Positions 349 to 51,584 are shown, numbered from the stretch's first letter. The stretch is DNA of 64,000 nt from an uncultured Alphaproteobacteria bacterium (GCA_905236245.1 CAJOPC010000004.1:6079-70078), one strand, 5' to 3'. The notes: generated from the letters alone by a model not told the origin. Numbers and translations: made by a program.

Positions 349-1224
349 TTATTGACATAATGCAAAACTGCCATAGCAGTGGTTTGTAGGAGATATATTT
401 CCACCATAAAACCCTATCGTGGGCGCATCCATGTTAGCACCTGCATTTATAAACCAAAAACCATTAATGTATCCAAAAGCCTGCATTAATTCATCTAGAA
501 CCGTGCTATATCTTACTTTATTCGCGTTAGTATACCAATTACGATCCCACTCACATGTTTGGCCACTAGCACAACATCCCCCAGAGTAATACCCATTTAC
601 TACAAGTGAATCTGAATTACTTTCATAACATTCAAATTTGCTGATATCTAACAAATTCATACCATGAGCCTTACACCAATTATCCGCTGCCCACCATGTT
701 ATCTCTTGCGTGTTTCTCCTTACTAAACCAAGAGTATTTGTTATCTCATCCTCATATTCATCAGCACTCATACAAACTCCTTTATCTGGTCTATCAGGCA
801 ATATCACCGGCGGAGGGCCATCAATGATACGTGCATCCAAATGACAAAAACACTTCTCATATCCATTTTCAACACACCAATCATTACAATCTCTATTACT
901 TATACAATTACCATCTAAATGTGTTTCTGTCCCACAAGGATCTTGTTCATACGATAAATACACATTTCCATTGGCACACACTGTACAAGATCCATCTGAA
1001 TTATGCTCTAAACCAGCTTCACATTTGGCAATACATGTATCATTCCAAACGTCCTCGTCATCTGTGCACACGACTTTGCTTCCCTCACCTCCAATATGCA
1101 AACTAATAGCATCAACACCTGTTCCACGATAAATAGAAGATTTTCGGCTCTTACCACCACCGCCAAAAGCCAACACACTTGTTGCCACCAAAATCGCTGT
1201 TCCAAATAATAAAATCTTTTCCAT
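349..1224 (-). CDS. Secreted cysteine-rich protein, family member P1 (conserved leader plus C-type-lectin-like C-terminal domain)
   Basis: The internal Met MEKILLFGTAILVATSVLAFGGGGKSRKSSIYRGTGVD matches the leader of four other paralogs. The module CTVCANGNVYLSYEQDPCGTET and the motif WWAADNWCKAHGMNLLDIS are shared with P2 and P3. The ATG lies at 1222-1224 (rev). Confidence 0.75.
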   Translation of the reverse strand: MEKILLFGTAILVATSVLAFGGGGKSRKSSIYRGTGVDAISLHIGGEGSKVVCTDDEDVWNDTCIAKCEAGLEHNSDGSCTVCANGNVYLSYEQDPCGTETHLDGNCISNRDCNDWCVENGYEKCFCHLDARIIDGPPPVILPDRPDKGVCMSADEYEDEITNTLGLVRRNTQEITWWAADNWCKAHGMNLLDISKFECYESNSDSLVVNGYYSGGCCASGQTCEWDRNWYTNANKVRYSTVLDELMQAFGYINGFWFINAGANMDAPTIGFYGGNISPTNHCYGSFALCQ

Positions 1225-1353
1225 GGTAGACCCTTCCAATATCACAAACTGCTTTCAAACTAAGCCTTTTTCCCATAAAAGTCAACCATTAAAAAACGCT
1301 TGAAAAAAAATTCATTTTATACGATAATACTCTTATTAAAGAAAGGCGATAAA

Positions 1354-38349: not shown

Positions 38350-39189
38350 TTACCTACACAATGGTGTAATAAATGGTCCATTTGATTTAGGACGAGAAAA
38401 ATTACCCACATCACTGTTATTAGCCGACACATTAAACATTGCACAGGAATTATCAGCTGAGTAATTAGAGCTGGTCCAAAAACTAACTGGTCCAAAATTT
38501 TGCCTCAGAGCAATAATCACAGCACTATAATGAGAATATACGAAATCTTCATGCTCTGGCAAAATAGTTTTATTCTCACATTGATAACAATTTTCCCAAT
38601 AATTATACCAAGGCCCTGCACTTTGACCAGATACACAACAAGAAGAGTATATACCGGAACCACCAGTAACTAGTGTTGAAGTATCACTCTGATAACAATT
38701 AAACTCGGCCACATCTATTAAAGATTTACCCTGTGCTTTGCACCAATTATCCGCAGACCACCAACTCATCCGTTCATATTTGTTAATGACTTCCCCTAAT
38801 CCTTCTATATTAACAGGGCCAAGCACATCTCCGATAGCGGTACAGGTTCCTGTATTTGGTTGTTCACAATTTGATCCATCCAAATTACAGTATTCGCCCT
38901 CATTACAATCCTCATTACTCTTACAACCATCAAAAATTGTTTCCGTACCACATGGATCTTCTTTGTATGACAAATACACATTACCATTGGCACAAACCGT
39001 ACATTTTCCAAATCTATCCTCTAACACGCCAGCGGCACAAGCGCCACCTTTTCCATTGATACGCACATCAACAGAGTCCACTCCTACTCCGCGATATACG
39101 GAGCTCTTACGACTTTTCCCGCCACCACCAAAGGCCAAAACACTTGTTGCCATTAAAAGTGCTGTTCCAAATAATAATATTTTATTCAT
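38350..39189 (-). CDS. Secreted cysteine-rich protein, family member P2 (conserved leader plus CTLD-like C-terminal domain)
   Basis: MNKILLFGTALLMATSVLAFGGGGKSRKSSVYRGVGVDS leader. The first ~105 aa match P3 at all but one position, after which the sequences diverge. WWSADNWCKAQGKSLIDVAEF motif. AAGGAG RBS. Confidence 0.8.
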   Translation of the reverse strand: MNKILLFGTALLMATSVLAFGGGGKSRKSSVYRGVGVDSVDVRINGKGGACAAGVLEDRFGKCTVCANGNVYLSYKEDPCGTETIFDGCKSNEDCNEGEYCNLDGSNCEQPNTGTCTAIGDVLGPVNIEGLGEVINKYERMSWWSADNWCKAQGKSLIDVAEFNCYQSDTSTLVTGGSGIYSSCCVSGQSAGPWYNYWENCYQCENKTILPEHEDFVYSHYSAVIIALRQNFGPVSFWTSSNYSADNSCAMFNVSANNSDVGNFSRPKSNGPFITPLCR

Positions 39190-39236
39190 AAAAACTCCTT
39201 TTTTAAAAATAAAACTCGCCCTGATAACTTAAAGTC

Positions 39237-39265
39237 ATTATATGTCATCCATTTTTAAATAGCAA
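39237..39265 (-). promoter_or_regulatory. Consensus sigma70 promoter of P2 (TTGCTA-17 bp-TATAAT on minus strand)
   Basis: On the minus strand, TTGCTA (39265-39260) and TATAAT (39242-39237). The identical module is found upstream of P3. Confidence 0.6.
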
Positions 39266-39296
39266 CAAAAAAGCCCGAGATAATCTCGGGCTTTTC
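39266..39296 (-). terminator. Rho-independent terminator of P3
   Basis: GCCCGAG-ataatc-CTCGGGC hairpin flanked by A and T runs. Confidence 0.7.
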
Positions 39297-39311
39297 ATGA
39301 GGACTATCGGG

Positions 39312-40034
39312 TTACTTACACAATGCAGGAGCATTCATGCCTTGTCCACCCTGTCGGCCATCTCTTGGGCCAATATATTTATCAAAAGTGCGCACATAAA
39401 CACTCTTACAGATATCTATACCATCATTTACCCAAAACCAATTATAACTTATCTTATCCAAAACTGGTTGCCAATCTAAATGACATCCAGAACTTTCTTG
39501 ACACGTTTCACCATTGATAATGACACCACTAACACTGGAAGGATCAATACCAATATCTTCTAAGCCAATCAACTGTTTTCCCCTAGCAGCACACCAATTT
39601 TCAGCAGCCCAATAGGAAAAAGAATCTTGGCTAATTATACAACCATCATCAAAAGTTGTTTTAATATCATTCTCATTTAATGGAGAACACACGCCTGTAT
39701 CTGGCTGTTCACAATTACTACCTGTCAAATTGCAATATTCATTTTCTCCACATTGTACATTACTTACACAACCTGTTACACTTGTTTCCGTACCACATGG
39801 ATCTTCTTCGTATGACAAATACACATTACCATTGGCACAAACCGTACATTTTCCAAATCTATCCTCTAACACACCAGCAGCACAAGCACCACCTTTTCCA
39901 TTAATATGCACATCAACAGAGTCCACTCCTACTCCGCGATATACGGAGCTCTTACGACTTTTCCCACCTCCACCAAAGGCCAAAACACTTGTTGCCATTA
40001 AAAGCGCTGTTCCAAATAATAATACTTTGTTCAT
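39312..40034 (-). CDS. Secreted cysteine-rich protein, family member P3 (tandem paralog of P2)
   Basis: Leader and first ~105 aa match P2 at all but one position (K/V at the fourth residue). Divergent C-terminus still containing YWAAENWCAARGKQLIGL. Confidence 0.8.
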   Translation of the reverse strand: MNKVLLFGTALLMATSVLAFGGGGKSRKSSVYRGVGVDSVDVHINGKGGACAAGVLEDRFGKCTVCANGNVYLSYEEDPCGTETSVTGCVSNVQCGENEYCNLTGSNCEQPDTGVCSPLNENDIKTTFDDGCIISQDSFSYWAAENWCAARGKQLIGLEDIGIDPSSVSGVIINGETCQESSGCHLDWQPVLDKISYNWFWVNDGIDICKSVYVRTFDKYIGPRDGRQGGQGMNAPALCK

Positions 40035-40070
40035 AAAAGCTCCTTTTTTAAAAATAAAACTCGCCTTGAT

Positions 40071-40231
40071 GAGAGGCGGTTGGAAGCTCGAAAACTATCA
40101 GATAGAATAGTGCGACATATTTCGGTGTTAACACCTTTATTTTGTCACCTTCCAACCACGTGATTGGAATTTTTCGTCCTTGGACGCTATCTGAAAGGCT
40201 TTCGAGACCTTAGATCGGGAATCACCCAATC
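40071..40231 (-). other. About 160-bp structured MITE-like insert in the P3 5'UTR (absent from the otherwise identical P2 leader)
   Basis: Flanked by sequence shared with the P2 leader. It contains a perfect 12-bp palindrome GGTGTTAACACC, a near-palindrome TTCCAACCACGTGATTGGAA, and outer inverted arms CTCGAAA...CAGATAG / CTATCTG...TTTCGAG. Confidence 0.55.
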
Positions 40232-40238
40232 CAAAGTC

Positions 40239-40267
40239 ATTATATGTCATCCATTTTTAAATAGCAA
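40239..40267 (-). promoter_or_regulatory. Consensus sigma70 promoter of P3 (same module as P2)
   Basis: TTGCTA...TATAAT, identical to the P2 promoter sequence. Confidence 0.6.
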
Positions 40268-40269
40268 CA

Positions 40270-40300
40270 AAAAAAGCCCCGATTACTCAGGGCTTTTATT
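40270..40300 (-). terminator. Terminator of the PFOR gene
   Basis: AGCCCC-gattactca-GGGCT hairpin plus T-run, immediately downstream of the stop at 40316. Confidence 0.6.
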
Positions 40301-40315
40301 TATTATCGGAAAGAT

Positions 40316-43300
40316 TTATTTTTCTTCCCCGGCCAGTTGTTTGTAGTATGCCCAACGGTCATCCACTTGCTTTTGAGCCTGTTTCAACAATTCCTCATAG
40401 TGTTCCGGATCTTGTTGTTTCACATACTTAAAGCGTGTTTCTGTGGCCATAAAATCGGCGACAGGAATGCTTGGCTTACTATCTAACTGGAATGGATTTT
40501 TACCTTCCGCTTTCAGGCGCGGATCAAAACGATACAATGGCCACAAGCCGGATTTCACCGCCAATTGTTGATGGTTCAATCCTTCCTTACCGATATCATA
40601 CCCATGGTTGATACAGTGGCTGTAAGCAATGATCAAGCTTGGTCCATTAAAGGATTCGGCTTCGTTCATGGCTTTCAAAGCTTGAGCATCATTAGCACCC
40701 AAGGAAATGCTTGCCACATAAACTTCGCCCGAACTCATGGCAATGGCGCCCAAGTCTTTGCGTGGCAAGCTGCTGCCCGACACGGCAAACTTAGCGGACG
40801 CACCAATCGGTGTTGCTTTAGAACGTTGTCCACCAGTGTTGGAATAAACCTCGGTATCCATGACCATAATGTTCACATTCTTGCCAGAGTACAAAGCGTG
40901 ATCTAAACCACCATAGCCGATATCATAGGCCCAACCGTCACCGCCCAAAATCCACACGGATTTTTTAACGAGATAGTCGGCATGTTCGCTCATCAATTTC
41001 ACACGATCACCAGACAAGGTTGCCAATTTTTCTTTCAACGCTTTCACACGATCACGTTGAGCGGCAATACCTTCCTCTGTTGTTTGATCGGCATTTAAAA
41101 TACTGTCAGCCAATTCGGCACCAACTTGGTCTTTCAATTCGCCCAATAACTGAATTGCAAATTCAATTTTGGAATCAACCGAAGTACGCATACCTAAACC
41201 AAACTCAGCATTGTCTTCAAACAAACTGTTTGCCCAAGCGGGGCCTCTGCCTTCTTCATTTTGTGCATACGGTGTTGTCGGTAAGTTACCGCCATAGATG
41301 GAGGAACAACCTGTTGCATTGGCCACCAACAAACGATCACCAAAGAGCTGCGTCATCATCTTGACATACGGCGTTTCGCCACACCCAGCGCAAGCGCCAG
41401 AGAATTCAAACAATGGACGCATGAGTGCTACACTCTTCACCGCTTTTGGATTCAACTTGCTGCGATCCGCATCTGGCAATTGCATAAAGAAGTCAAAGTT
41501 CTTGATTTCTTGATCAATATGCTTTTCAATTGGCTCCATAACAAGCGTGTTTTTCGCTTTCATTGGGCAAACCTGCGTACACAAAGAACACCCTGTGCAA
41601 TCTTCTGGAGCTACCTGAACAATAAACTTGTTACCGGCAAAATCAGGTGTCTTATAATCCGAGGACTTAAAGCCCTCCGGCGCATTTGCCAATGTTTCTG
41701 GTTTAGCCACTTTTGCACGAATAGCGGCATGTGGACACACAGACACACATTTACCGCATTGGATACATGTTTCTGGATCCCAGCAAGGAATCTCCGTTGC
41801 CACACGGCGTTTTTCATAGCGAGCGGTATCGCTTGGCCACGTCCCATCCACAGTCCATTCAAACGCGGAGACAGGTAATTCATTTCCTTTTTCTTCAATG
41901 ATTTTACCCGTCACATTACGAATCAACTCTGGCGCAGTCGTTGGTACACCCGGTTGACGATGAATCTTGGAGTTTGCTTCTCCGATCTTCACTTCATACA
42001 AATGCTCCAAACTGGCATCCACGGCCTTGATGTTAGCATCCACCACTTCTTGACCTTTTTTCATATAGGTTTTTGTAATGGCTGCTTTAATCTTTTCAAT
42101 TGCCACATCCTTTGGCAACACGCCGGAAATAGCAAAGAAACAAGCCTGCATGATTGTGTTGATTCTGCGACCCATGCCTGTCTTACCGGCCACATCCACC
42201 GCATCAATGGCATACATTTTAATCTTCTTATCAATGATCTCTTGTTGCACCTCAATCGGTAAACTGTCCCATACTTGATCGGCAGGGGTTTGTGTATTCA
42301 ACAAGAACACAGAATTTGGTGCAGCCACCGCCAACAAATCAATCTTATGCAAGAATGGTTCATGGTGACAAGCCACAAAGTCAGCGGATGTAATCAAATA
42401 CGGCGCCTTAATCGGGCTCTTACCAAAGCGCAAGTGAGATGTTGTCATCGCACCCGACTTTTTGGAATCATACACAAAGTATGCTTGCCCATACATATCA
42501 TCGGCATCTGCAATAATTTTGATAGAGTTCTTATTTGCACCAACAGTACCATCAGAACCCAAACCAAAGAAGATACAACGACTGAGGTCTTGGGCTGGTA
42601 AATTCCAAGTGGCATCATAATCCAAAGATCCATTTGTCACATCATCATTGATACCAACGGTGAAGTGATTCTTTTCCACGTTTTCAAACACAGCTTTTGC
42701 CATAGCGGGCGTGAATTCTTTGGAGGAAATTCCATAACGGCCACCCAACACTTTTGGCATAGCGCGGCCATTGACAGCCCCTTCGGCCAAAGCGGATACA
42801 ACATCCAAGTACAAAGGTTCACCAACGGAACCAGCTTCTTTTGTTCTGTCTAATACTGTCACATATTTCACGGATTCAGGCAAAGCCGCCACAAATGCTT
42901 TGGATGGGAACGGACGATACAAATGTACCGCCACAACACCATATTTACCACCATTGGCATTCAAGGCTTTTACTGTTTCAGATAATGTTTCTACACCGGA
43001 ACCCATAGCAACCACAACATGTTCAGCATCTTTGGCGCCAACATAATCCACAATATGATAAGCACGGCCAGTGACTTCTTCAAACTTGCGCATACATTTT
43101 TCAACGATTTCTGGGCAAGCCTGATAATACTTGTTTGCAGCTTCTTTAATTTGGAAGAATACATCCGGATTCTGAGCTGTACCACGAACCTTTGGATGAT
43201 CCGGCGTCAAAGCGTTCTTACCTGTAAAGTCTGTTGGAATATCCGCCATCAAAGCCTTCAAATCATCATCACTCATCATATTGATTTTGTTGATTTCGTG

Positions 43301-43828
43301 GGATGTGCGGAATCCATCAAAGAAATGCAAGAACGGAATGCGTGACAAATATGTGGACATTTGCGCCACCGCGGCCAAATCATGTGCTTCCTGAACCGAG
43401 TTGGAAGCCAACATTGCAAATCCCGTTTGACGGCAAGCCATCACATCCGAGTGATCACCAAAAATGGACAAAGCATGTCCTGCAACAGTACGAGCCGCCA
43501 CATGCATCACAAATGGCAACAATTCGCCAGCAATCTTGTACATATTCGGAATCATCAACAACAAACCTTGGCTGGCGGTATAAGTTGTGGTCATAGATCC
43601 AGCTTGCAAAGCCCCATGCACGGCACCGATAGCTCCAGCTTCAGATTGCATTTCCAAAACTTGCGGCACTTTGCCCCAAATGTTTTGTTGTTTACCGGCC
43701 GCCCAAGCGTCCGCCCATTCGCCCATTGGAGAAGATGGCGTAATCGGATAAATAATGGAAAGTTCGTTCAATTTATATGCCACTGTAGCAGCGGCTTCGT
43801 TTGCATCAAGCATTTTTGTTTTAGACAT
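40316..43828 (-). CDS. nifJ: Pyruvate:ferredoxin (flavodoxin) oxidoreductase, single-polypeptide PFOR
   Basis: About 1170 aa. Two 4Fe-4S ferredoxin motifs (CIQCGKCVSVCP, CTGCSLCTQVCP). TPP-binding GDGW motif. The start is set at MSKTKMLD (43826-43828 rev). Confidence 0.92.
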   Translation of the reverse strand: MSKTKMLDANEAAATVAYKLNELSIIYPITPSSPMGEWADAWAAGKQQNIWGKVPQVLEMQSEAGAIGAVHGALQAGSMTTTYTASQGLLLMIPNMYKIAGELLPFVMHVAARTVAGHALSIFGDHSDVMACRQTGFAMLASNSVQEAHDLAAVAQMSTYLSRIPFLHFFDGFRTSHEINKINMMSDDDLKALMADIPTDFTGKNALTPDHPKVRGTAQNPDVFFQIKEAANKYYQACPEIVEKCMRKFEEVTGRAYHIVDYVGAKDAEHVVVAMGSGVETLSETVKALNANGGKYGVVAVHLYRPFPSKAFVAALPESVKYVTVLDRTKEAGSVGEPLYLDVVSALAEGAVNGRAMPKVLGGRYGISSKEFTPAMAKAVFENVEKNHFTVGINDDVTNGSLDYDATWNLPAQDLSRCIFFGLGSDGTVGANKNSIKIIADADDMYGQAYFVYDSKKSGAMTTSHLRFGKSPIKAPYLITSADFVACHHEPFLHKIDLLAVAAPNSVFLLNTQTPADQVWDSLPIEVQQEIIDKKIKMYAIDAVDVAGKTGMGRRINTIMQACFFAISGVLPKDVAIEKIKAAITKTYMKKGQEVVDANIKAVDASLEHLYEVKIGEANSKIHRQPGVPTTAPELIRNVTGKIIEEKGNELPVSAFEWTVDGTWPSDTARYEKRRVATEIPCWDPETCIQCGKCVSVCPHAAIRAKVAKPETLANAPEGFKSSDYKTPDFAGNKFIVQVAPEDCTGCSLCTQVCPMKAKNTLVMEPIEKHIDQEIKNFDFFMQLPDADRSKLNPKAVKSVALMRPLFEFSGACAGCGETPYVKMMTQLFGDRLLVANATGCSSIYGGNLPTTPYAQNEEGRGPAWANSLFEDNAEFGLGMRTSVDSKIEFAIQLLGELKDQVGAELADSILNADQTTEEGIAAQRDRVKALKEKLATLSGDRVKLMSEHADYLVKKSVWILGGDGWAYDIGYGGLDHALYSGKNVNIMVMDTEVYSNTGGQRSKATPIGASAKFAVSGSSLPRKDLGAIAMSSGEVYVASISLGANDAQALKAMNEAESFNGPSLIIAYSHCINHGYDIGKEGLNHQQLAVKSGLWPLYRFDPRLKAEGKNPFQLDSKPSIPVADFMATETRFKYVKQQDPEHYEELLKQAQKQVDDRWAYYKQLAGEEK

Positions 43829-43894
43829 GTTTTTCCTTTCAAAAATTGATGGCAATTTTATACAACTTTTTTTCATAAATTGCAAGCATAAAAT

Positions 43895-43928
43895 CTTAAA
43901 AAAATCCCCATCTTTTTGACGGGGATTT
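43895..43928 (-). terminator. Terminator of P4
   Basis: ATCCCCgtcaaaaagatGGGGAT hairpin plus T-run on the minus strand. Confidence 0.6.
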
Positions 43929-43998
43929 GAACAAAACATTTTTCCTATATTCTCGTTTGATAATTCACAACAATTTCACCTACACAAAAATATAAAAA

Positions 43999-44715
43999 TC
44001 ATTGATTACATGTGTCAGGAGACCAACTACCCCCAGGGGTCACTTCACCAGCACAACATCCCCAAGACCAACTTCCACCATCACACTCCGGCCCATGTCG
44101 AGATAAACAATATGGGGTTGTATCTTTTGGACAACAAATATAGCCTATACACACATTGTTTTCATCGTACTTGTAACAAACGGGTTCAGTTCCCGGAGTG
44201 GTACAACATAAATCTGATCCATCTAGCCCTTTACCTTCAAATACTTCACCATTACAACATGTATAATTATCTCCATATGAAAAACGACCACTCAAATAAG
44301 GCTTTCCTCCACTGGGGCAACACAAAGACCAGTTATAAACACAATTTCCATCAGCATCACGAGTAAAACAAAAAAGGGTGCCGGTGCAACACATTGAAGC
44401 CCACGACCCTACTTGGCGAGAAGCCGATTCTCCTGCTGGGCAACAAAAATTCAATTCTTCATTACAACACTGGTATTCGCCTGATTCGTTCTGACTACAT
44501 ACATTATCACCATAACAACAACCTTTACCGCACTTAACACCATCTGAGCACGTCTCCTCTGAATCACTATCTTTTCCACTAAAATGCACACCGATAGAAT
44601 CAACGCCTACGCCACGATAAACGGAAGATTTGCGACTCTTTCCTCCTCCGCCGCCAAAGGCTAAAACAGAGGTTGCTACCAAAATTGCCATTCCAAATAA
44701 TAATACCTTTTTCAT
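43999..44715 (-). CDS. Secreted cysteine-rich protein, family member P4 (conserved leader plus tandem CC-x-G repeat C-terminal domain)
   Basis: MKKVLLFGMAILVATSVLAFGGGGGKSRKSSVYRGVGVDSIGVHF leader. The C-terminus contains many CC pairs (CCYGDN, CCNEE, CCPAGE, CCTGT, CCPSGG, CCNGE, CCTTPG, CCPKD, CCAGE). AGGAG RBS. It lies 18 nt downstream of the preceding gene. Confidence 0.8.
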   Translation of the reverse strand: MKKVLLFGMAILVATSVLAFGGGGGKSRKSSVYRGVGVDSIGVHFSGKDSDSEETCSDGVKCGKGCCYGDNVCSQNESGEYQCCNEELNFCCPAGESASRQVGSWASMCCTGTLFCFTRDADGNCVYNWSLCCPSGGKPYLSGRFSYGDNYTCCNGEVFEGKGLDGSDLCCTTPGTEPVCYKYDENNVCIGYICCPKDTTPYCLSRHGPECDGGSWSWGCCAGEVTPGGSWSPDTCNQ

Positions 44716-44733
44716 ATTAATCTCCTAAAAAAT

Positions 44734-45156
44734 TTAATGGTGATGATGATGGTGCCTGATTGTCCGCAAATAATCCTGTCTTTCACGATACGAATCTTGA
44801 TAAGTGGATTCATCACGTTCCATTTCGGCATGCTCTTGAATACATGTCCATAACGCCTCTTTTGAAATAGCGCTATCTTTAAAGTAATTCTCACAAGTCG
44901 TGTTTAACTTATCAATTTTTTGCTCAATTCTATCTGCCAATTCTTTGCTAACGGAACCTGACATATGATACAAACGCCTAAATAATTTTTCATAAAACAA
45001 ATGGCACTTCATATTCTGTTCTGAACCAGGCTGAAAACCCAACACTTCTTCACATTGACGATTCAAAGCTTCTTGATAACGTGCCTCACCAATTCGATCA
45101 GAGTCTGCCATCGGGTTAAGTAACAAAGAAGTTAATAAAATACTTCCCCAAAACAC
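44734..45156 (-). CDS. Small secreted protein with a natural C-terminal hexahistidine tail (putative metal-binding), co-transcribed with P4
   Basis: GTG start with an AAGGAGG RBS. Hydrophobic N-terminus. Ends ...TIRHHHHHH-stop. The likely promoter TTGCAT-17-TATTAT is upstream. Confidence 0.6.
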   Translation of the reverse strand: MFWGSILLTSLLLNPMADSDRIGEARYQEALNRQCEEVLGFQPGSEQNMKCHLFYEKLFRRLYHMSGSVSKELADRIEQKIDKLNTTCENYFKDSAISKEALWTCIQEHAEMERDESTYQDSYRERQDYLRTIRHHHHHH

Positions 45157-45261
45157 AAAAGCCTCCTTTTTTTAATGATTTACATGAAAGTATAATACCA
45201 TACATGAAATAAAATGCAAGCACTTATTTCGTTTTCGGGAATCATTTGAAATTATTTTAAA

Positions 45262-46410
45262 TCAATAATTAGATTTTCCTTGATTAAAAAAACCTAAATG
45301 CCGGTTTGTCTTACCTATTTGATTAAAAGAAACTTCCACCATTTTGGTGTAATTAATTCTTTTATCTTTATCTTTAGAAATAATTTGCTCTACACTTACT
45401 CTGGATTCACCAACTTTAGCAAAAATACCATGGAAATACCGCTTAAAAGAAGCAACCAACTCACGCAACTGAACCGGATTCGATGCTTCTCGGACTAAGT
45501 CCGATGCAAACGAAGTCACAGCAGCGCGCTTTAAATCAAGCAACTGTCGTTCCCGCGCGGCGGGAGAAAGATGAATGACTTTATCATACAATCCTTCATC
45601 AATCAATTTAGCAGATTTCAAATACTCCAAAGCGGTTACAATACGCACCTGAGCTCTTTGAAATAAACACTCTTCCTTTTTACCATGAATGTATTGGAAA
45701 GCAACCGGTCGCAAACCATAATCACGAATATCCGCCAAGGCTTTATAAATTCGAAAATTATTTAATTTCTGCAAAGCGCTAGAAGCGCGCATTGTTCTAA
45801 CTCCTAAAGGGGAACGACCTTTTCCGATCGCCATTTTATTCATCCACACCCAACCCGCATCTTCATCAACAGGAGTCGCCCGTTGGCACATTAACTCATC
45901 TACAACACTCACCTTTCCCTTTTGATCTGTGCGCACTTCTTCCATATACAATGCAGTGCTTAAGGCTGCAACCAATTTAATTGGTTTGTCCAAACGAAGA
46001 CATAAATTTATATAAGCATCAAAATTTTGATCAGCCAAATACTTTAAAAGCAAGGAAACTTTTTTTGGGGGCGTAGAAATAAACGCAGCTCCCGCATTCT
46101 CTGGATTCTGAATAGAATTTTGAATTTCTTCCGTTACCATGGAATCTTGCCAACGTTCCATATGATTAAATAATGCTTCATAATCCACAGGATCCACCAA
46201 TCCAAAAACAGCAAACAAAGGTAAATCAGAATAGCTATGATACGCCCGCCACGCAACCAAATCTTTGGCATGCGCTTTCGAATCAAAAAACTTTTTCATG
46301 ATCCTTCTCTGAGACAACCGAACTCGTTCTGAATTCAATGTATCTCTGGCAACTTCTACGCGTTGTATCCATTGAAAATCTCGTTTATCATTTGCCATCA
46401 TACACTCCAA
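45262..46410 (-). CDS. Hypothetical protein (382 aa)
   Basis: Long ORF. I recognise no family. Confidence 0.45.
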   Translation of the reverse strand: MECMMANDKRDFQWIQRVEVARDTLNSERVRLSQRRIMKKFFDSKAHAKDLVAWRAYHSYSDLPLFAVFGLVDPVDYEALFNHMERWQDSMVTEEIQNSIQNPENAGAAFISTPPKKVSLLLKYLADQNFDAYINLCLRLDKPIKLVAALSTALYMEEVRTDQKGKVSVVDELMCQRATPVDEDAGWVWMNKMAIGKGRSPLGVRTMRASSALQKLNNFRIYKALADIRDYGLRPVAFQYIHGKKEECLFQRAQVRIVTALEYLKSAKLIDEGLYDKVIHLSPAARERQLLDLKRAAVTSFASDLVREASNPVQLRELVASFKRYFHGIFAKVGESRVSVEQIISKDKDKRINYTKMVEVSFNQIGKTNRHLGFFNQGKSNY

Positions 46411-46517
46411 ACAAAACTAATTGGTCGCTATTGTACAAGATTTTTTAATTATGTCAAGTTTTTACATACTATAAAAAGCCCCACCAGTTGGCAGGGCTTT
46501 CGTATTGTCTGAAAAAA

Positions 46518-47702
46518 TTACTTTTCCAAAATGGCAACACCCGGCAAAGATTTGCCTTCCATCCATTCCAAGAAAGCACCACCGGCCGCAGACACATAGG
46601 TCATGTCGGCTTTTACACCTGCTTTTTTTAAAGCGGAAACGGTATCACCACCGCCTGCGACGGATGTCAAAGCGCCGGCCTTTGTTTGATCGGCCACCAC
46701 TTTGGCAATTTCGTTTGTGGCTTTGTCAAAAGGTTTGATTTCAAATGCGCCCACCGGGCCGTTCCAAATCAATGTCTTTGCATTTTTAATCACATCAGCA
46801 AAAGCAGCCACAGATTTTTCTCCAATATCTAACAATACTTTGCCGGCAGGTACCGCATTTACATCGGATGTATGGGGCTCTTGACCTTCAGCAAAGGCAT
46901 CGGCCCATACCAAATCTACAGGCAAAACAATTTTGCAATTACCGGCATTAGCCAAAATGTTTTTAGCTGTATCAATCATATCTGGTTCAACCAAAGAGCC
47001 TTCGCCCATTGGAATTCCTTGTGCAGCCAAAAAAGTATGAGCCATACCGCCACCAATGAGCAAGTAATCTACTTTCTTCACCAAGTTACCCAATAAATCC
47101 AATTTCGTGGAAACTTTGCTACCACCCACCAAAGCAACGGCTGGATGGACAGGGTTACCCAAAGCTTTGTCCAAAGCCTCCAATTCTTCCTGCATCAAAC
47201 GACCTGCGCCATTTGGCAACAAATGTGCCATACCTTCTGTGGAGGCATGCGCACGATGTGCCGTTGAGAAAGCATCATTGATATAAATATCCATACCATG
47301 TGCCAAACTTTCGGCGAATTCGCGATCGTTGGCTTCTTCTCCTTCATAGAAGCGTAAGTTTTCCAACAAAATAACTTCGCCTGGTTGCATAGCTGCTACA
47401 GCAGCATCACGAGCTTCGCCCACACAATCGTCAATGAATTTCACGGAAACACCTGCCGCTTTTTCCAAAGCAGGAGCCAAAAAAGCCATAGAAAATTCCG
47501 GATTCTTTTGACCTTTCGGACGACCAAAGTGACTAGCCACCACGGCTTTACCACCATGTTCAATAATATATTTCAAAGTCGGCACAAAACGATCGATACG
47601 AGTTGTATCTGTGATTTGTCCATCCTTGGCAGGCACATTCAAGTCTGCACGAATAAAAACTGTTTTACCGTTAAAATCAAAATTATCCAAAGTATTAAAC
47701 AT
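46518..47702 (-). CDS. pgk: Phosphoglycerate kinase
   Basis: MFNTLDNFDFNGKTVFIRADLNVP N-terminus and conserved Pgk motifs throughout. The start is set at the internal Met. Confidence 0.95.
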   Translation of the reverse strand: MFNTLDNFDFNGKTVFIRADLNVPAKDGQITDTTRIDRFVPTLKYIIEHGGKAVVASHFGRPKGQKNPEFSMAFLAPALEKAAGVSVKFIDDCVGEARDAAVAAMQPGEVILLENLRFYEGEEANDREFAESLAHGMDIYINDAFSTAHRAHASTEGMAHLLPNGAGRLMQEELEALDKALGNPVHPAVALVGGSKVSTKLDLLGNLVKKVDYLLIGGGMAHTFLAAQGIPMGEGSLVEPDMIDTAKNILANAGNCKIVLPVDLVWADAFAEGQEPHTSDVNAVPAGKVLLDIGEKSVAAFADVIKNAKTLIWNGPVGAFEIKPFDKATNEIAKVVADQTKAGALTSVAGGGDTVSALKKAGVKADMTYVSAAGGAFLEWMEGKSLPGVAILEK

Positions 47703-47822
47703 TTTTGTCCTTTCTTTTGTTAAAATAATTGTGTCCATTGTTTTAATCTTTTTTTAAAAAAATTGCAAGAGGAATTTATTTGAAGCCTTAACAAAAATCC
47801 CCCGACAAATCGGGGGAAAATA

Positions 47823-48737
47823 TTACAGGACACACGTATCGGGTTCATTTTTTGATCCTGGGGTAACTGTTCCAGGACAACATCTCCAAGAGGCACCACC
47901 ACAACATCCCTCATATCGGGAGACACAATAAGGCGTTTCTCCTTCACTACAACATGCTGCTTGATAATAGTAATTTTGTTGAATAAAAAACGATGTTACA
48001 CAATCTGCCTTGCCACATGCATATCCATATCCTCTACATTTTTCTCCGTTGGTTTCATATTCTGCACAATATCCTTTTTCTCCCTCTGCACAACAAATAT
48101 GTACAGTACAATTACCTGCATCATCATACTCCGCACAAACTGGTTTTTTCCCATCATAACAGCACAAATCAGCCCCATCCACGCCTTTCTCTTTATAAAC
48201 TTTTCCTCCATTAGAACAACACATATATTGATCTCCATAAGAAAATTTACCATTTATATAAGGCTCTCCATCACAACATAAATACTCTTTAGTACCATCA
48301 TCACGTTCATAAGGGCCATATACTTTCCCTCCAGTTGGGCAACAAGAAGTAGACGTACAATTATCTTCTGCATCTTTATAACTGCAAAACAATTTCCCAG
48401 CACAGCAAGTCGTCTCCCAATATCCTCTGAAGATACGATATGCTCCACCACTTATTGGGCAACAATGATTTAATTCTTCACTGCAGCACTGATACTCGCC
48501 AGACTCATTCTGCTTGCACACATTATCACCATAACAACAACCGCTGCCACATTTGATACCATCAGAACAGGTCTCTTTTCCTGAATCGTCATCTTTTCCA
48601 TTAAAATGTACACCGATAGAATCAATACCTGTGCCGCGGTAGACAGATGCCTTTCGACTTTTTCCGCCCCCACCACCAAAGGCAAAAACCGATGTTGCCA
48701 CCAAAATTGCCGTTCCGAATAATAAAACTTTTTTCAT
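47823..48737 (-). CDS. Secreted cysteine-rich protein, family member P5 (conserved leader plus CC-x-G repeat domain, P4-like)
   Basis: MKKVLLFGTAILVATSVFAFGGGGGKSRKASVYRGTGIDSIGVHFNGKDDDSGKETCSDGIKCGSGCCYGDNVC parallels P4. The C-terminus is longer and repeat-rich. Confidence 0.8.
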   Translation of the reverse strand: MKKVLLFGTAILVATSVFAFGGGGGKSRKASVYRGTGIDSIGVHFNGKDDDSGKETCSDGIKCGSGCCYGDNVCKQNESGEYQCCSEELNHCCPISGGAYRIFRGYWETTCCAGKLFCSYKDAEDNCTSTSCCPTGGKVYGPYERDDGTKEYLCCDGEPYINGKFSYGDQYMCCSNGGKVYKEKGVDGADLCCYDGKKPVCAEYDDAGNCTVHICCAEGEKGYCAEYETNGEKCRGYGYACGKADCVTSFFIQQNYYYQAACCSEGETPYCVSRYEGCCGGASWRCCPGTVTPGSKNEPDTCVL

Positions 48738-48832
48738 CTTTTATCCTTTCTTTATTAAATTACAAAACACCCCTGCCTTACGGCACGGTTTAATTCATCG
48801 GCGTCGCCGATTTTGCTCGGCAAGCTTTTAAT

Positions 48833-48854
48833 TGTGTGTGTGTGTGTGTGTGTG
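48833..48854. repeat. (TG)11 dinucleotide microsatellite, about 100 bp upstream of the P5 start codon
   Basis: Perfect TG x 11, visible directly in the sequence. Confidence 0.9.
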
Positions 48855-48965
48855 TACAAAATAAGGGCTATCGCCTTATTCACGTTCGCTATTTTTTTTA
48901 AAATCATAGAATCATTCCTACACATGGCTTCATTTTGACATATACTTCAATGAATTGTCAAGGGG

Positions 48966-49000
48966 AAAACAAAAAAATACTCCCGATTGTGCGGGAGTAT
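48966..49000 (-). terminator. Terminator of the FadL-family gene
   Basis: ATACTCCCGcacaatCGGGAGTAT hairpin plus a 7-T run on the minus strand. Confidence 0.7.
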
Positions 49001-49019
49001 TTTCGATTTTTACCCGATA

Positions 49020-50258
49020 TTAAAAATGATACTGGGCGCTTAAACCAAGGCTGTTGAGTTGCGTATGATATGTTCCGCGAATTTCGGTCTGTCCCGTTGT
49101 GTTAGCTTTACTAGCCACACGAGCTTTGGACCAAAACATATGGAAATAGCTGGCATCGATTTGCCAATTACCTCTTTTATAACTGGCACCAATACTGGCA
49201 ATCCAGCGGTTTGCGTCTGGCACACGCGCGGTACGATGCTTTGGATCTTTTACCGCACCTTGATCATAAGCCAAACCAGTCCGGAAGGTCAAATTTTTGC
49301 AATAATGATAATCGACGCCACCAGAAACTGTCCAAGTATTCCGCCAATTTTCATCAACTTGAGATGGAGTTCTCCCAGGGCCTAATTGAGCCAAAGCCGT
49401 TGAATCAATAGACAACAAATTGAAACGGCTCCAACGTGTCCAACGTGCCATAGCAGAAAGACCAAACTTGCCAACTTCTTGATAGGCTGTTAATTGAATG
49501 TGCTCTGGATCTACCAACTTTGTACTACTATAACCTTCTTTACGCCCCACTGCGGGATTTGGGTGTTGAAAGTGGTGTTTACCTTTAATATTTTGCACAA
49601 TCGGAGAACGATAAGCCACACCGAAACGTGCTGTCTTTGTTGGCTCAACCATAATACCAGCATTCCAACCATGTCCCCAACCATCAGCATTCATGTCGGA
49701 TTTACCGCCAGCAGCAGAATCCAATGTATTTGTTAAACGTGCTTGCATGCGTTCCAAAATAAAGCCACCACCAATACTCAACCATTGCAATGGTTTCCAT
49801 GCCAAAGATGGATGGATATCAATTGTTTCAATCTCACTCACCAAAGAATGTGTACGACCAAACCAAGATTTATTATAATATGTGCCCAATCCAAACGGTA
49901 CATACAATCCTAAACCTAAACGCCAATTTTCGGAAAGCGCATATTGTCCGAAAGCATGCGGAATCAATTTAAAGTTACGCAATTTACCTTTGGAAGTCGC
50001 TGTACCATCACTCAATGAACCACCTTCCACATTGGAATGAATGTCCATTCCCATAGCACCCAATTGCATACCCGACTTTCTCAAAGTCATACCGGCAGGG
50101 TTAAAAGCCACTGCAGAATAATCGTCACCAACGATACCTGCTCCGGCAAAAGCACGACCGGCATTTGTGACAGAGTATTCCTGTAATTGATAACCACCGG
50201 CCCAAACACTGGTGGAAGCCATTAATAATACTGCTAATAATGTTAATTTACTTTTCAT
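49020..50258 (-). CDS. FadL/OmpP1/TodX family outer-membrane hydrophobic-compound transporter
   Basis: Signal peptide. The mature N-terminus AGGYQLQEYSVTNAGRAFAGAG is typical of FadL. C-terminal aromatic residue (..YHF). Confidence 0.8.
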   Translation of the reverse strand: MKSKLTLLAVLLMASTSVWAGGYQLQEYSVTNAGRAFAGAGIVGDDYSAVAFNPAGMTLRKSGMQLGAMGMDIHSNVEGGSLSDGTATSKGKLRNFKLIPHAFGQYALSENWRLGLGLYVPFGLGTYYNKSWFGRTHSLVSEIETIDIHPSLAWKPLQWLSIGGGFILERMQARLTNTLDSAAGGKSDMNADGWGHGWNAGIMVEPTKTARFGVAYRSPIVQNIKGKHHFQHPNPAVGRKEGYSSTKLVDPEHIQLTAYQEVGKFGLSAMARWTRWSRFNLLSIDSTALAQLGPGRTPSQVDENWRNTWTVSGGVDYHYCKNLTFRTGLAYDQGAVKDPKHRTARVPDANRWIASIGASYKRGNWQIDASYFHMFWSKARVASKANTTGQTEIRGTYHTQLNSLGLSAQYHF

Positions 50259-50435
50259 TTTTTCTCCTTTTGTTTCACTTTGGTGACACTATTATTACAC
50301 TTTTATTACAACAATGCAACAAAAAAATTTAAAAAAATGAAACTATCTTATTTTTCAAAATAAAATACGCATCTAAACTCATATACAACAAAAAAACACC
50401 CCCGAGTTTCGAGGGTGTTTCTTTTAAGTTGAAGA

Positions 50436-51443
50436 TTACAACAATTTGCCCATAGCAACGGCTGTATCCAACATACGATTGGAGAATCCCCATTCGTTGT
50501 CATACCAGCTCATCACACGCAATTGTGTACCACCCATCACCTTTGTGCCGTTAGCATCAAATGTGGAGGAGTGAGCATCATGTGTAAAGTCGATGCTGAC
50601 CAATTTTTCGGCGTTGTAACCCAAAATTCCTTTGAGTTCACCTTCTGCAGCGGCTTTCAAAGCGGCGTTGACTTCATCAACGGTTACTTCTTTTTCCATA
50701 ATGAAGTTAGCATCCACCAAAGAAACATCTGGGGTCGGCACGCGAATCGAAACACCGTCCAATTTGCCGGCCAATTCTGGCATCACCAAACCAATAGCTT
50801 TAGCAGCACCAGTCTTTGTTGGAATCATGCTCATAGCAGCAGCACGAGCGCGATACAAATCTTTATGTAATTGATCCAAAATCTTTTGATCATTTGTGTA
50901 GCTGTGAATTGTTGTCATAAAGCCTTGTTTAATGCCAAAAGCTTTTTGCAATACATAGACCACAGGGGCCAAACAGTTTGTTGTGCAAGATGCATTAGAA
51001 ACAACCAAATCTTCGGCTGTCAATGTATTTTGGTTCACACCGTACACGATTGTCTTATCGGCGCCTTCTGATGGAGCAGACACCAACACGCGTTTTGCAC
51101 CAGCTTGCAAATGCACCATAGCTTTTTCCTTGGATGTAAAGATACCTGTGCATTCAAACACGATATCAACACCCATTTCACCCCATGGCAATTGTGTTGG
51201 ATCTTTTTGAGCAATCACGCGGGTCTTTTTATCTCCGGCGAGCAAATATTCACCCTCGGCACGAATATCCATATCTAATTTTCTGTGAATAGAATCATAC
51301 TTCAACAAATAAGCATTGGCGGCGGCGTCACCCAAATCATTGATGGCAACGATATCCACATCTGTGCGGCCAGATTCCAACCAAGCACGATATACCAAAC
51401 GGCCAATACGGCCAAATCCGTTAATAGCAACTTTTACTGTCAT
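50436..51443 (-). CDS. gap: Glyceraldehyde-3-phosphate dehydrogenase (type I)
   Basis: [15 protein letters not shown] start. [10 protein letters not shown] active site. The upstream ORF extension was rejected. Confidence 0.95.
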
Positions 51444-51529
51444 TTTCTTTATTTTCCTTTCATTAAAAATACGACTTAAAAATCGTGCCTTTGATATAAG
51501 CATATTTTTTATAAAATTGCAAGCACTTT

Positions 51530-51558
51530 TTGACAGATTTTGAGTTCCATGGTATAAT
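51530..51558 (+). promoter_or_regulatory. Perfect consensus sigma70 promoter (TTGACA-17 bp-TATAAT) driving a small ORF
   Basis: TTGACA at 51530-51535 and TATAAT at 51553-51558. Confidence 0.65.
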
Positions 51559-51584
51559 GAAAGTGTCAACGGAAAGGAGAGCAC

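Follow-up and report, generated by a model that had tools for sequence, protein, structure and literature searches.

The window, i.e. the whole stretch of 64,000 nucleotides analysed here, carries a small gene, named X below, which is followed on the minus strand by a gene encoding a Cys-rich secreted protein. The PGK encoded in the window shares 91-93% identity with that of two MAGs listed as "Alphaproteobacteria bacterium" and 78-79% with that of MAGs recovered from the rectum of sheep and the caecum of water buffalo, and the source organism, with a GC content of 39%, is an uncultured gut alphaproteobacterium. Along the minus strand, genes occur in the order gap, fadL, a Cys-rich gene of 304 aa, pgk, p382, X, a Cys-rich gene of 238 aa, PFOR and two more Cys-rich genes. 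The features of the X region are listed below in the direction of transcription.

45192-45219, minus strand: promoter-like element of X, TTGCAT (45219-45214), 16-nt spacer and TATTAT (45197-45192); conserved upstream of homologues, putative promoter function
45162-45168, minus strand: ribosome-binding site (RBS) of X, AAGGAGG, 5 nt 5' of the GTG, read from the sequence
44734-45156, minus strand: X coding sequence (140 aa, coordinates including the stop), from the ORF list and the sequence
45106-45156, minus strand: codons 1-17 of X, predicted Sec signal peptide (MFWGSILLTSLLLNPMA, then DSD), from the hydropathy profile and the lipoprotein signals of the family
44842-45054, minus strand: four-Cys helical core of X, with C35 (45052-45054), C51 (45004-45006), C88 (44893-44895) and C105 (44842-44844)
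44737-44754, minus strand: six His codons CAC CAT CAT CAT CAC CAT, immediately 5' of the TAA stop
44716-44733, minus strand: spacer of 18 bp separating X from the Cys-rich gene and containing AGGAG (44726-44722), read from the sequence
43999-44715, minus strand: downstream Cys-rich gene, encoding a secreted protein of 238 aa that contains 28 Cys, one of five leader-sharing genes in the window
43898-43928, minus strand: intrinsic terminator AAATCCCCGTCAAAAAGATGGGGATTTTTTT predicted to end the X / Cys-rich unit (hairpin of -16.3 kcal/mol, then a T run)
43826-43885, minus strand: separate PFOR promoter (TTGCAA 43885-43880, TATAAA 43862-43857), RBS and true start (ATG 43828-43826)

Gene X, its predicted export signal and its probable transcription unit

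The start of X is a GTG at 45156-45154, as read off the sequence. This choice is backed by a same-position ATG in one homologue, and four homologues with 61-80% identity begin at the same position, with GGAG kept at the place of the RBS across the homologous loci. A codon comparison with the 80%-identical homologue of locus L005 gave a dN/dS of 0.058, with dS being saturated. Because of the same-position starts, the low dN/dS and the identical copies found in other assemblies (see below), X is a genuine gene under purifying selection; it occurs once in the window. The 140-aa ORF, the GTG, the AAGGAGG and the hydrophobic N-terminus announced by the original prediction are all present, on the minus strand.

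Hydropathy averaged over 11 residues (Kyte-Doolittle) amounts to 1.5-1.8 across residues 1-17, which makes the N-terminus, MFWGSILLTSLLLNPMA, hydrophobic; the putative cleavage site was placed before DSD. Distant members of the family have canonical lipoprotein signal peptides whose lipobox aligns with the signal region of X. The hydropathy and these signals of the relatives suggest that X is probably exported, most likely to the periplasm, in agreement with the secretion first proposed. In the clade of X, the signal peptide has an n-region devoid of Lys or Arg, an h-region of only about 10-13 residues and a Pro at -3 of the predicted cleavage site; the uncharged n-region and this Pro make the efficiency of export and cleavage uncertain. 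These same traits would fit an N-terminus that is a degenerate remnant, with the protein being cytoplasmic or non-functional, yet this alternative is very improbable given the dN/dS value, the retention of all four Cys, the conservation of the same short N-terminus in six relatives and the ancestors of the family, which were clearly lipoproteins.

Upstream of X, TTGCATTTTAT and TAT(T/G)AT are kept in front of the homologues of loci L005 and L006, with the TTGCAT box being also found in L003. This element resembles GCTTGCAATTTAT of the PFOR promoter and reaches 8/12 matches, under the threshold of the promoter scan. Inside the X ORF, two weak promoter-like matches (9/12) occur on the minus strand, and matches of equal strength are common in shuffled sequence; the lack of a separate promoter for the Cys-rich gene, as first stated, is thus no more than a presumption. 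The 18-bp gap to the Cys-rich gene and the AGGAG RBS of the latter were found exactly as first reported, and no terminator-like site or hairpin was detected between the two genes. In L003 and L006, the terminator listed above occurs directly 3' of the X homologue with base changes that preserve the stem; the consensus terminator scan missed this conserved terminator in the window, and it was revealed by comparative alignment.

In both of these loci the hairpin is followed by a TTGCAA/TATAA promoter and by the PFOR start, a stretch that is conserved near base for base with the window. This conserved separate promoter and start place PFOR outside the X transcription unit. The mechanical PFOR ORF begins at 43939, and the conserved terminator, promoter, RBS and ATG place its real start at 43828 (MSKTKMLDANE...); codons 1-37 of the ORF as listed thus overlap a terminator and a promoter. 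X in these relatives thus appears as a stand-alone gene, with its own promoter and terminator, ahead of the PFOR promoter. In the window, X and the Cys-rich gene are very probably co-transcribed, because they are only 18 bp apart, because no hairpin lies between them and because the terminator that ends X in relatives is located here after the Cys-rich gene. The operon initially proposed is therefore supported by the architecture of this genome; as a pairing it is not conserved in relatives (see below).

Gene order in other loci suggests that X has long been resident in this neighbourhood and is dispensable. The order is pgk, X and a p382 homologue in L004, and pgk, p382 homologue and PFOR in L008, a locus with 93% PGK identity that has neither X nor the Cys-rich gene. 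Distant, longer members of the family occur as gap-X-Y-pgk or gap-X-pgk, Y being a small lipoprotein described below, and the order gap-X-(Y)-pgk was found for P0024, P0025 and P0017 (P numbers designate family members). A Mur-ligase / SLT / gap / pgk synteny is common to the window and L098; a gap-pgk association was not seen in 11 JGI loci.

Two other aspects of this region were recorded. The pgk-PFOR interval is hypervariable among close relatives (window 45262-46410 on the minus strand; L004 755-1831; L008 1542-2684; L003 3-1664), with p382 being only 28-35% identical between genomes whose PGK are at least 93% identical, and with an unrelated protein of 554 aa in L003. The proteins of this interval are fast-evolving, have no Pfam match and could be effector-like or surface proteins. 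On a larger scale, positions 38350-51584 (minus strand) form a co-directional block of 13 kb mixing the central-metabolism genes gap, pgk and PFOR with genes for secreted or outer-membrane proteins, namely fadL, four Cys-rich genes and X, upstream of which are the peptidoglycan-turnover genes SLT, Mur ligase and LD-carboxypeptidase.

The Cys-rich neighbour

Five genes of the window (349-1245, 38350-39189, 39312-40034, 43999-44715 and 47823-48737, all on the minus strand) share a near-identical leader of 48 aa (MKKVLLFG..GGGGKSRKSSVYRGVGVDS), which is made of a signal peptide followed by GGGG(G)KSRKSSVYRGVGVDS. The segment conserved after the signal peptide resembles a sorting or processing signal common to these proteins. 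Beyond the leader, the bodies of these proteins are divergent, have no Pfam match and contain 15-37 Cys in the four copies counted; the product encoded next to X has 28 Cys and not 30 as first stated. About 15 relatives were found in the database, about 11 of which carry the source signature of this genome, and the genome appears to have about a dozen paralogues. In two loci, a Cys-rich gene lies shortly 3' of a FadL/Toluene_X channel gene (window 47823-50258; L113-L115 2282-4705), with a small ORF in between that encodes 50 aa in the window and a DUF378 protein in L113-L115.

No Cys-rich gene is present at this position in L003, L006, L004 or L008. Since the gene of the window is located between the X stop codon and the conserved terminator, unlike the situation in L003 and L006, it is read as an insertion that would be recent and local.

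X had also been proposed as a folding or partner factor for the Cys-rich protein. With 18 bp between them and a common terminator, the two genes are probably co-expressed in this genome, and Y, a small Cys-containing lipoprotein, is also encoded 3' of an X homologue in two distant lineages, all of which would suit a dedicated folding, export or partner role. However, BLASTP revealed no significant relationship of Y to the Cys-rich family (E-values of 0.23 and 45), and Y was dropped as a relative. Furthermore, the pairing is missing in the four informative relatives, which show X followed by the terminator and PFOR (L003 and L006), X followed by the p382 homologue (L004) or no X (L008). When the other members of the Cys-rich family were inspected for a similar partner gene, X was found upstream of only one of the five leader-sharing genes in the window, and the copies found elsewhere are solitary genes preceded by long intergenic regions, with no X upstream. 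The database holds a single X protein with the source signature of this genome, and this occurrence of one X for many Cys-rich paralogues argues against a dedicated partner. Finally, X displays neither a CxxC nor a thioredoxin-like motif. Such a role for X is thus highly unlikely.

Regarding Y itself, this lipoprotein has CPSC and CRxC motifs and was found in L088 (4125-4571) and L093 (6651-6968), in the orders gap-X-Y-pgk and gap-X-Y, respectively. The presence of two envelope lipoproteins, the X homologue and Y, inside a glycolytic gene cluster is unusual.

The X family and its C-terminal tail

The family to which X belongs is very small. An exhaustive profile search among 1.84 billion proteins matched only 13 cluster representatives, with E-values for members ranging from 1e-49 to 1e-5, and a wider family profile gave 17 matches in a database of 5.8 billion clusters. 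Pfam searches with X and 17 family members returned no relevant match (E up to 0.1-1), only scattered single-member noise, and no NCBIfam match was found. Relatives were likewise not found in a GTDB genome scan and a JGI metagenome scan run with the alignment of the close clade, and X is absent from 80 GTDB pgk loci. By these searches, the family appears as an undescribed one that is absent from Pfam and NCBIfam and confined to gut-associated Alphaproteobacteria. One sequence, P0006 (130 aa, on a 690-bp ENA contig), was left out as a probable assembly chimera or frame fusion: it combines the N-terminus of a UvrD helicase (PF00580, PF13245) with half of an X homologue, namely the C-terminal one, whose last residues are RHHRKVY.

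Typical members are lipoproteins of ca. 188-190 aa, with a lipobox, a four-Cys domain with four predicted helices, and a long charged helix. The family motif is Q-C-x(4)-[LM]-G-F ... [YN]-M-x-C-x-x-F-Y, then N-x-x-C ... [LI]-W-x-C, in which the Cys contexts are QC....LGF..G...[YN]M.C..FY and N..C......LW.C; X has this motif, with its four Cys and Q34, F41, N85 and W103. Across the 17 aligned members, C35, C51 and C88 are invariant and C105 is found in 16, the exception being P0019, a C-terminally scrambled version of P0020, which itself retains the Cys. In the long forms (P0020-P0027; L100-L105), all sequences end in an invariant ...VKCK after a charged helix of ca. 55 residues, and the C-terminal hairpin reads ...K.PKKVKCKTY.KSNGYIQVKCK. 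The lipobox Cys is missing from X and its closest clade (P0001-P0005, P0008), and most of the distant members have L-x-[GA]-C. X and this clade also lack the C-terminal extension and end soon after helix 4. Because no Cys occurs in the signal region of its clade, X is viewed as a non-lipidated variant of a lipoprotein family; it is also a shortened form.

An AF2 model of X built from 17 sequences (pLDDT 86.8, pTM 0.73) predicts helices at 15-38, 46-63, 71-91 and 99-139, and in this model each Cys pair brackets one inter-helix loop. This arrangement suggests that X is probably stapled by two disulfides, C35-C51 and C88-C105, one per helical hairpin, which is consistent with an oxidising compartment. 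A Foldseek comparison of both AF2 models with the PDB gave nothing at E < 1, and a profile search of the PDB with the family returned coiled-coil noise only. An internal duplication of the two hairpins was also considered: the alignment by hhalign covered 15 columns around the first Cys of both halves, at P 0.007 and with a probability of 6%, a result that is suggestive and not significant.

One locus, L106, is of particular composition as it encodes a long-form X (37-648), a glycine-zipper lipoprotein that resembles SlyB by eye (719-1225) and a second X paralogue (1215-1862); a similar glycine-rich lipoprotein is found near X in L100 (3495-4064). The second paralogue of L106 is homologous to the X family (hhalign probability of 97%), with all four X Cys aligning, and consists of the four-Cys domain followed by a tail of ca. 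60 residues rich in His, Arg, Pro and Gly.

The C-terminus of X is ...YLRTIRHHHHHH, ending in RHHHHHH right before the stop, with the end ...DYLRTIRHHHHHH encoded by AGG CAC CAT CAT CAT CAC CAT TAA. Within the window, six CAY codons in a row are found a single time, for 0.03 expected from shuffles. A His6 placed straight before a stop resembles an engineered tag, and every sequence match of X in the PDB was driven by such tags and was set aside as uninformative; an artefact, whether by vector or His-tag contamination, chimeric assembly or sequencing error, is nevertheless of negligible probability. Five contigs, taken from ENA, Logan and NCBI assemblies that derive from different assembly pipelines, encode an identical protein, and the two of them that were fetched both have native flanks. 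No plasmid match to the X region, either nucleotide or protein, was found among 72,556 plasmid records. The tail runs on from the conserved ...DYLRTI[KR] without a linker or a restriction-site scar, its CAC and CAT codons are mixed in a native context, and HHH or HRH occurs at the same place in homologues, the closest of which end in KHHHY, KQHRH, RQHRH and RHRHKKY. The His tail is therefore natural, as originally claimed, and the comparison of assemblies and plasmid records gave no sign of vector contamination.

At the position of the tail, homologues have CAT CAC CAT TAC TAA (KHHHY, in L005) or CAA CAT CGT CAT TAA (KQHRH). Relative to the L005 tail, the His6 appears as a short in-frame expansion of CAY codons, lineage-specific, recent and local. 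Six consecutive His are unique to the lineage of X within the family; the 90% cluster of X is a single sequence, and no variant in tract length was seen.

A His tail conserved among homologues was not found. The tail contains six His in X, two or three in the four closest relatives and none in P0008, which has ERRR, and the long forms have Lys-rich ends (KCK). Among about 30 members, nearly all carry a net positive charge over the final 20 residues, which are rich in Lys in the long forms and in Arg and His in the short ones; in X they include 4 Arg and 6 His. What is conserved in the tails of the family thus appears to be positive charge, not histidine.

A stretch of six His is known to bind Ni, Zn or Cu in vitro. 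The affinity for Ni, Co, Zn and Cu is in the micromolar range, and His-rich low-complexity regions of prokaryotes are enriched in metal-binding proteins (PMC6821194). In the periplasmic DUF4198 family, one cluster has an extended His-rich C-terminal tail, the role of which is itself a matter of conjecture; the zinc-capture protein Zcp is also a member of this family and belongs to another cluster than the His-tailed one (PMC12663993). X may along these lines be a periplasmic protein that captures or buffers Zn, Ni or Cu, in which the His6, perhaps with the four Cys, hands metal to an importer or to envelope metalloproteins. H136, which is invariant among the five closest relatives, would agree with a tail selected for metal binding or pH sensing, and His/Arg-rich tails arose twice in the family, that of the L106 paralogue being independent, which could likewise point to metal binding. 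Several observations are at odds with this alternative, which we regard as unlikely. His is not a family-wide feature of the tails, no known metal-binding domain was detected, and the Cys occur singly at the ends of helices flanking loops, with no CxxC, a layout more in keeping with structural disulfides than with a metal site. Moreover, the neighbours within about 10 kb of X are AsmA, GNAT, PFOR, PGK, FadL, GAPDH, SLT, Mur ligase and LD-carboxypeptidase, among which there is no metal transporter or regulator and no hydrogenase or urease, and such genes were not found in the homologous loci either. The chaperone or buffer initially proposed finds no backing in the conservation of the tail or in the gene content of the region, and a dedicated role of this kind would be speculation.

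Interpretation and comparison with known systems

The interpretation that we favour, and consider fairly probable, is that of a real exported four-helix protein with a natural His6, a cationic docking tail and a Cys-rich neighbour acquired by insertion. X would be exported to the periplasm as about 123 mature residues (14.9 kDa) and would fold into a domain of four helices, paired as two helix-loop-helix hairpins with one disulfide stapling each. This acidic domain (pI about 5.1) would be followed by a short cationic tail, in which the His6 would result from the in-frame CAY expansion of a tail that reads [KR]-x-H-[RH]-H in the closest relatives. The most likely guess is that the tail docks the domain onto an anionic component of the envelope (peptidoglycan, LPS or phospholipid, for example), in which case the His6 would bind metal as a by-product; this guess is preferred because the conserved feature is charge and not histidine. 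Finally, a member of the expanding Cys-rich paralogous family would have landed between the stop codon and the terminator of X, giving rise to a two-gene transcript in this lineage only, on which the Cys-rich gene would be an accidental and recent passenger.

The X locus is thus a curiosity and not a metal-handling system, and its biological importance is modest unless the cationic or His tail has a specific role in the envelope or with metals. X offers a clear-cut case of a hexahistidine that occurs naturally at the C-terminus of a protein from an uncultured bacterium. It calls for caution, since a protein of this kind would co-purify when Ni columns are used and its sequence may be mistaken for vector contamination. 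The locus also illustrates how a new secreted Cys-rich gene may capture expression between an existing stop codon and a terminator. A broader proposal, which we consider quite unlikely, is that the family represents an unrecognised class of envelope proteins of host-gut Alphaproteobacteria, with a disulfide-stapled helical domain and an interchangeable C-terminal end, in which short forms, X and the L106 paralogue with its His/Arg/Pro tail among them, would have repeatedly evolved periplasmic metal capture or pH sensing and long forms could tether the outer membrane to peptidoglycan, in the manner of Lpp, in bacteria that lack Lpp.

When compared to known systems, X shares with the nickel metallochaperones UreE, SlyD, HypB, CooJ and Hpn a His run at or near the terminus. 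These proteins are cytoplasmic and are encoded in urease, hydrogenase or CODH clusters. X differs by its signal-like N-terminus, which suggests export, by its four conserved Cys, by its glycolysis, PFOR and envelope neighbours and by a His tail that is not conserved in the family, and no hydrogenase, urease or CODH maturation gene was found within about 10 kb. The likeness to HypB, SlyD and UreE that had been put forward does not extend to sequence or domains: neither the CobW/HypB/UreG GTPase, nor the FKBP PPIase with its IF domain, nor the UreE N- and C-terminal domains were detected in X or in the 17 members with Pfam (E up to 0.1-1) and NCBIfam.

A parallel in terms of compartment is provided by ZinT, the ZnuA loop and the His-tailed DUF4198 cluster (PMC12663993), which are periplasmic, as predicted for X, and likewise combine a flexible His-rich segment with a folded domain and a host-associated niche. 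However, none of these domains was detected in X, which is predicted to be all-helical and which occurs without a znu or Zur context. Proteins of the DUF1311 / LprI type are, like X, small helical exported proteins or lipoproteins with conserved Cys pairs, but none of the 17 family members matches the Pfam model (E up to 0.1) and the Foldseek comparison with the PDB gave no hit below E = 1.

The last comparison is with Braun's lipoprotein Lpp, which joins the outer membrane to peptidoglycan via its C-terminal Lys. Alphaproteobacteria are generally not known to encode this protein. There is no sequence similarity between Lpp and the X family, and X itself has neither the lipobox Cys nor a Lys-rich C-terminus. 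The putative likeness is thus confined to the long-form relatives of X, which recall Lpp by their lipobox, by a long helix rich in charges and by a C-terminal Lys that is invariant, and which differ from it by carrying in addition the four-Cys domain and a disulfide hairpin.
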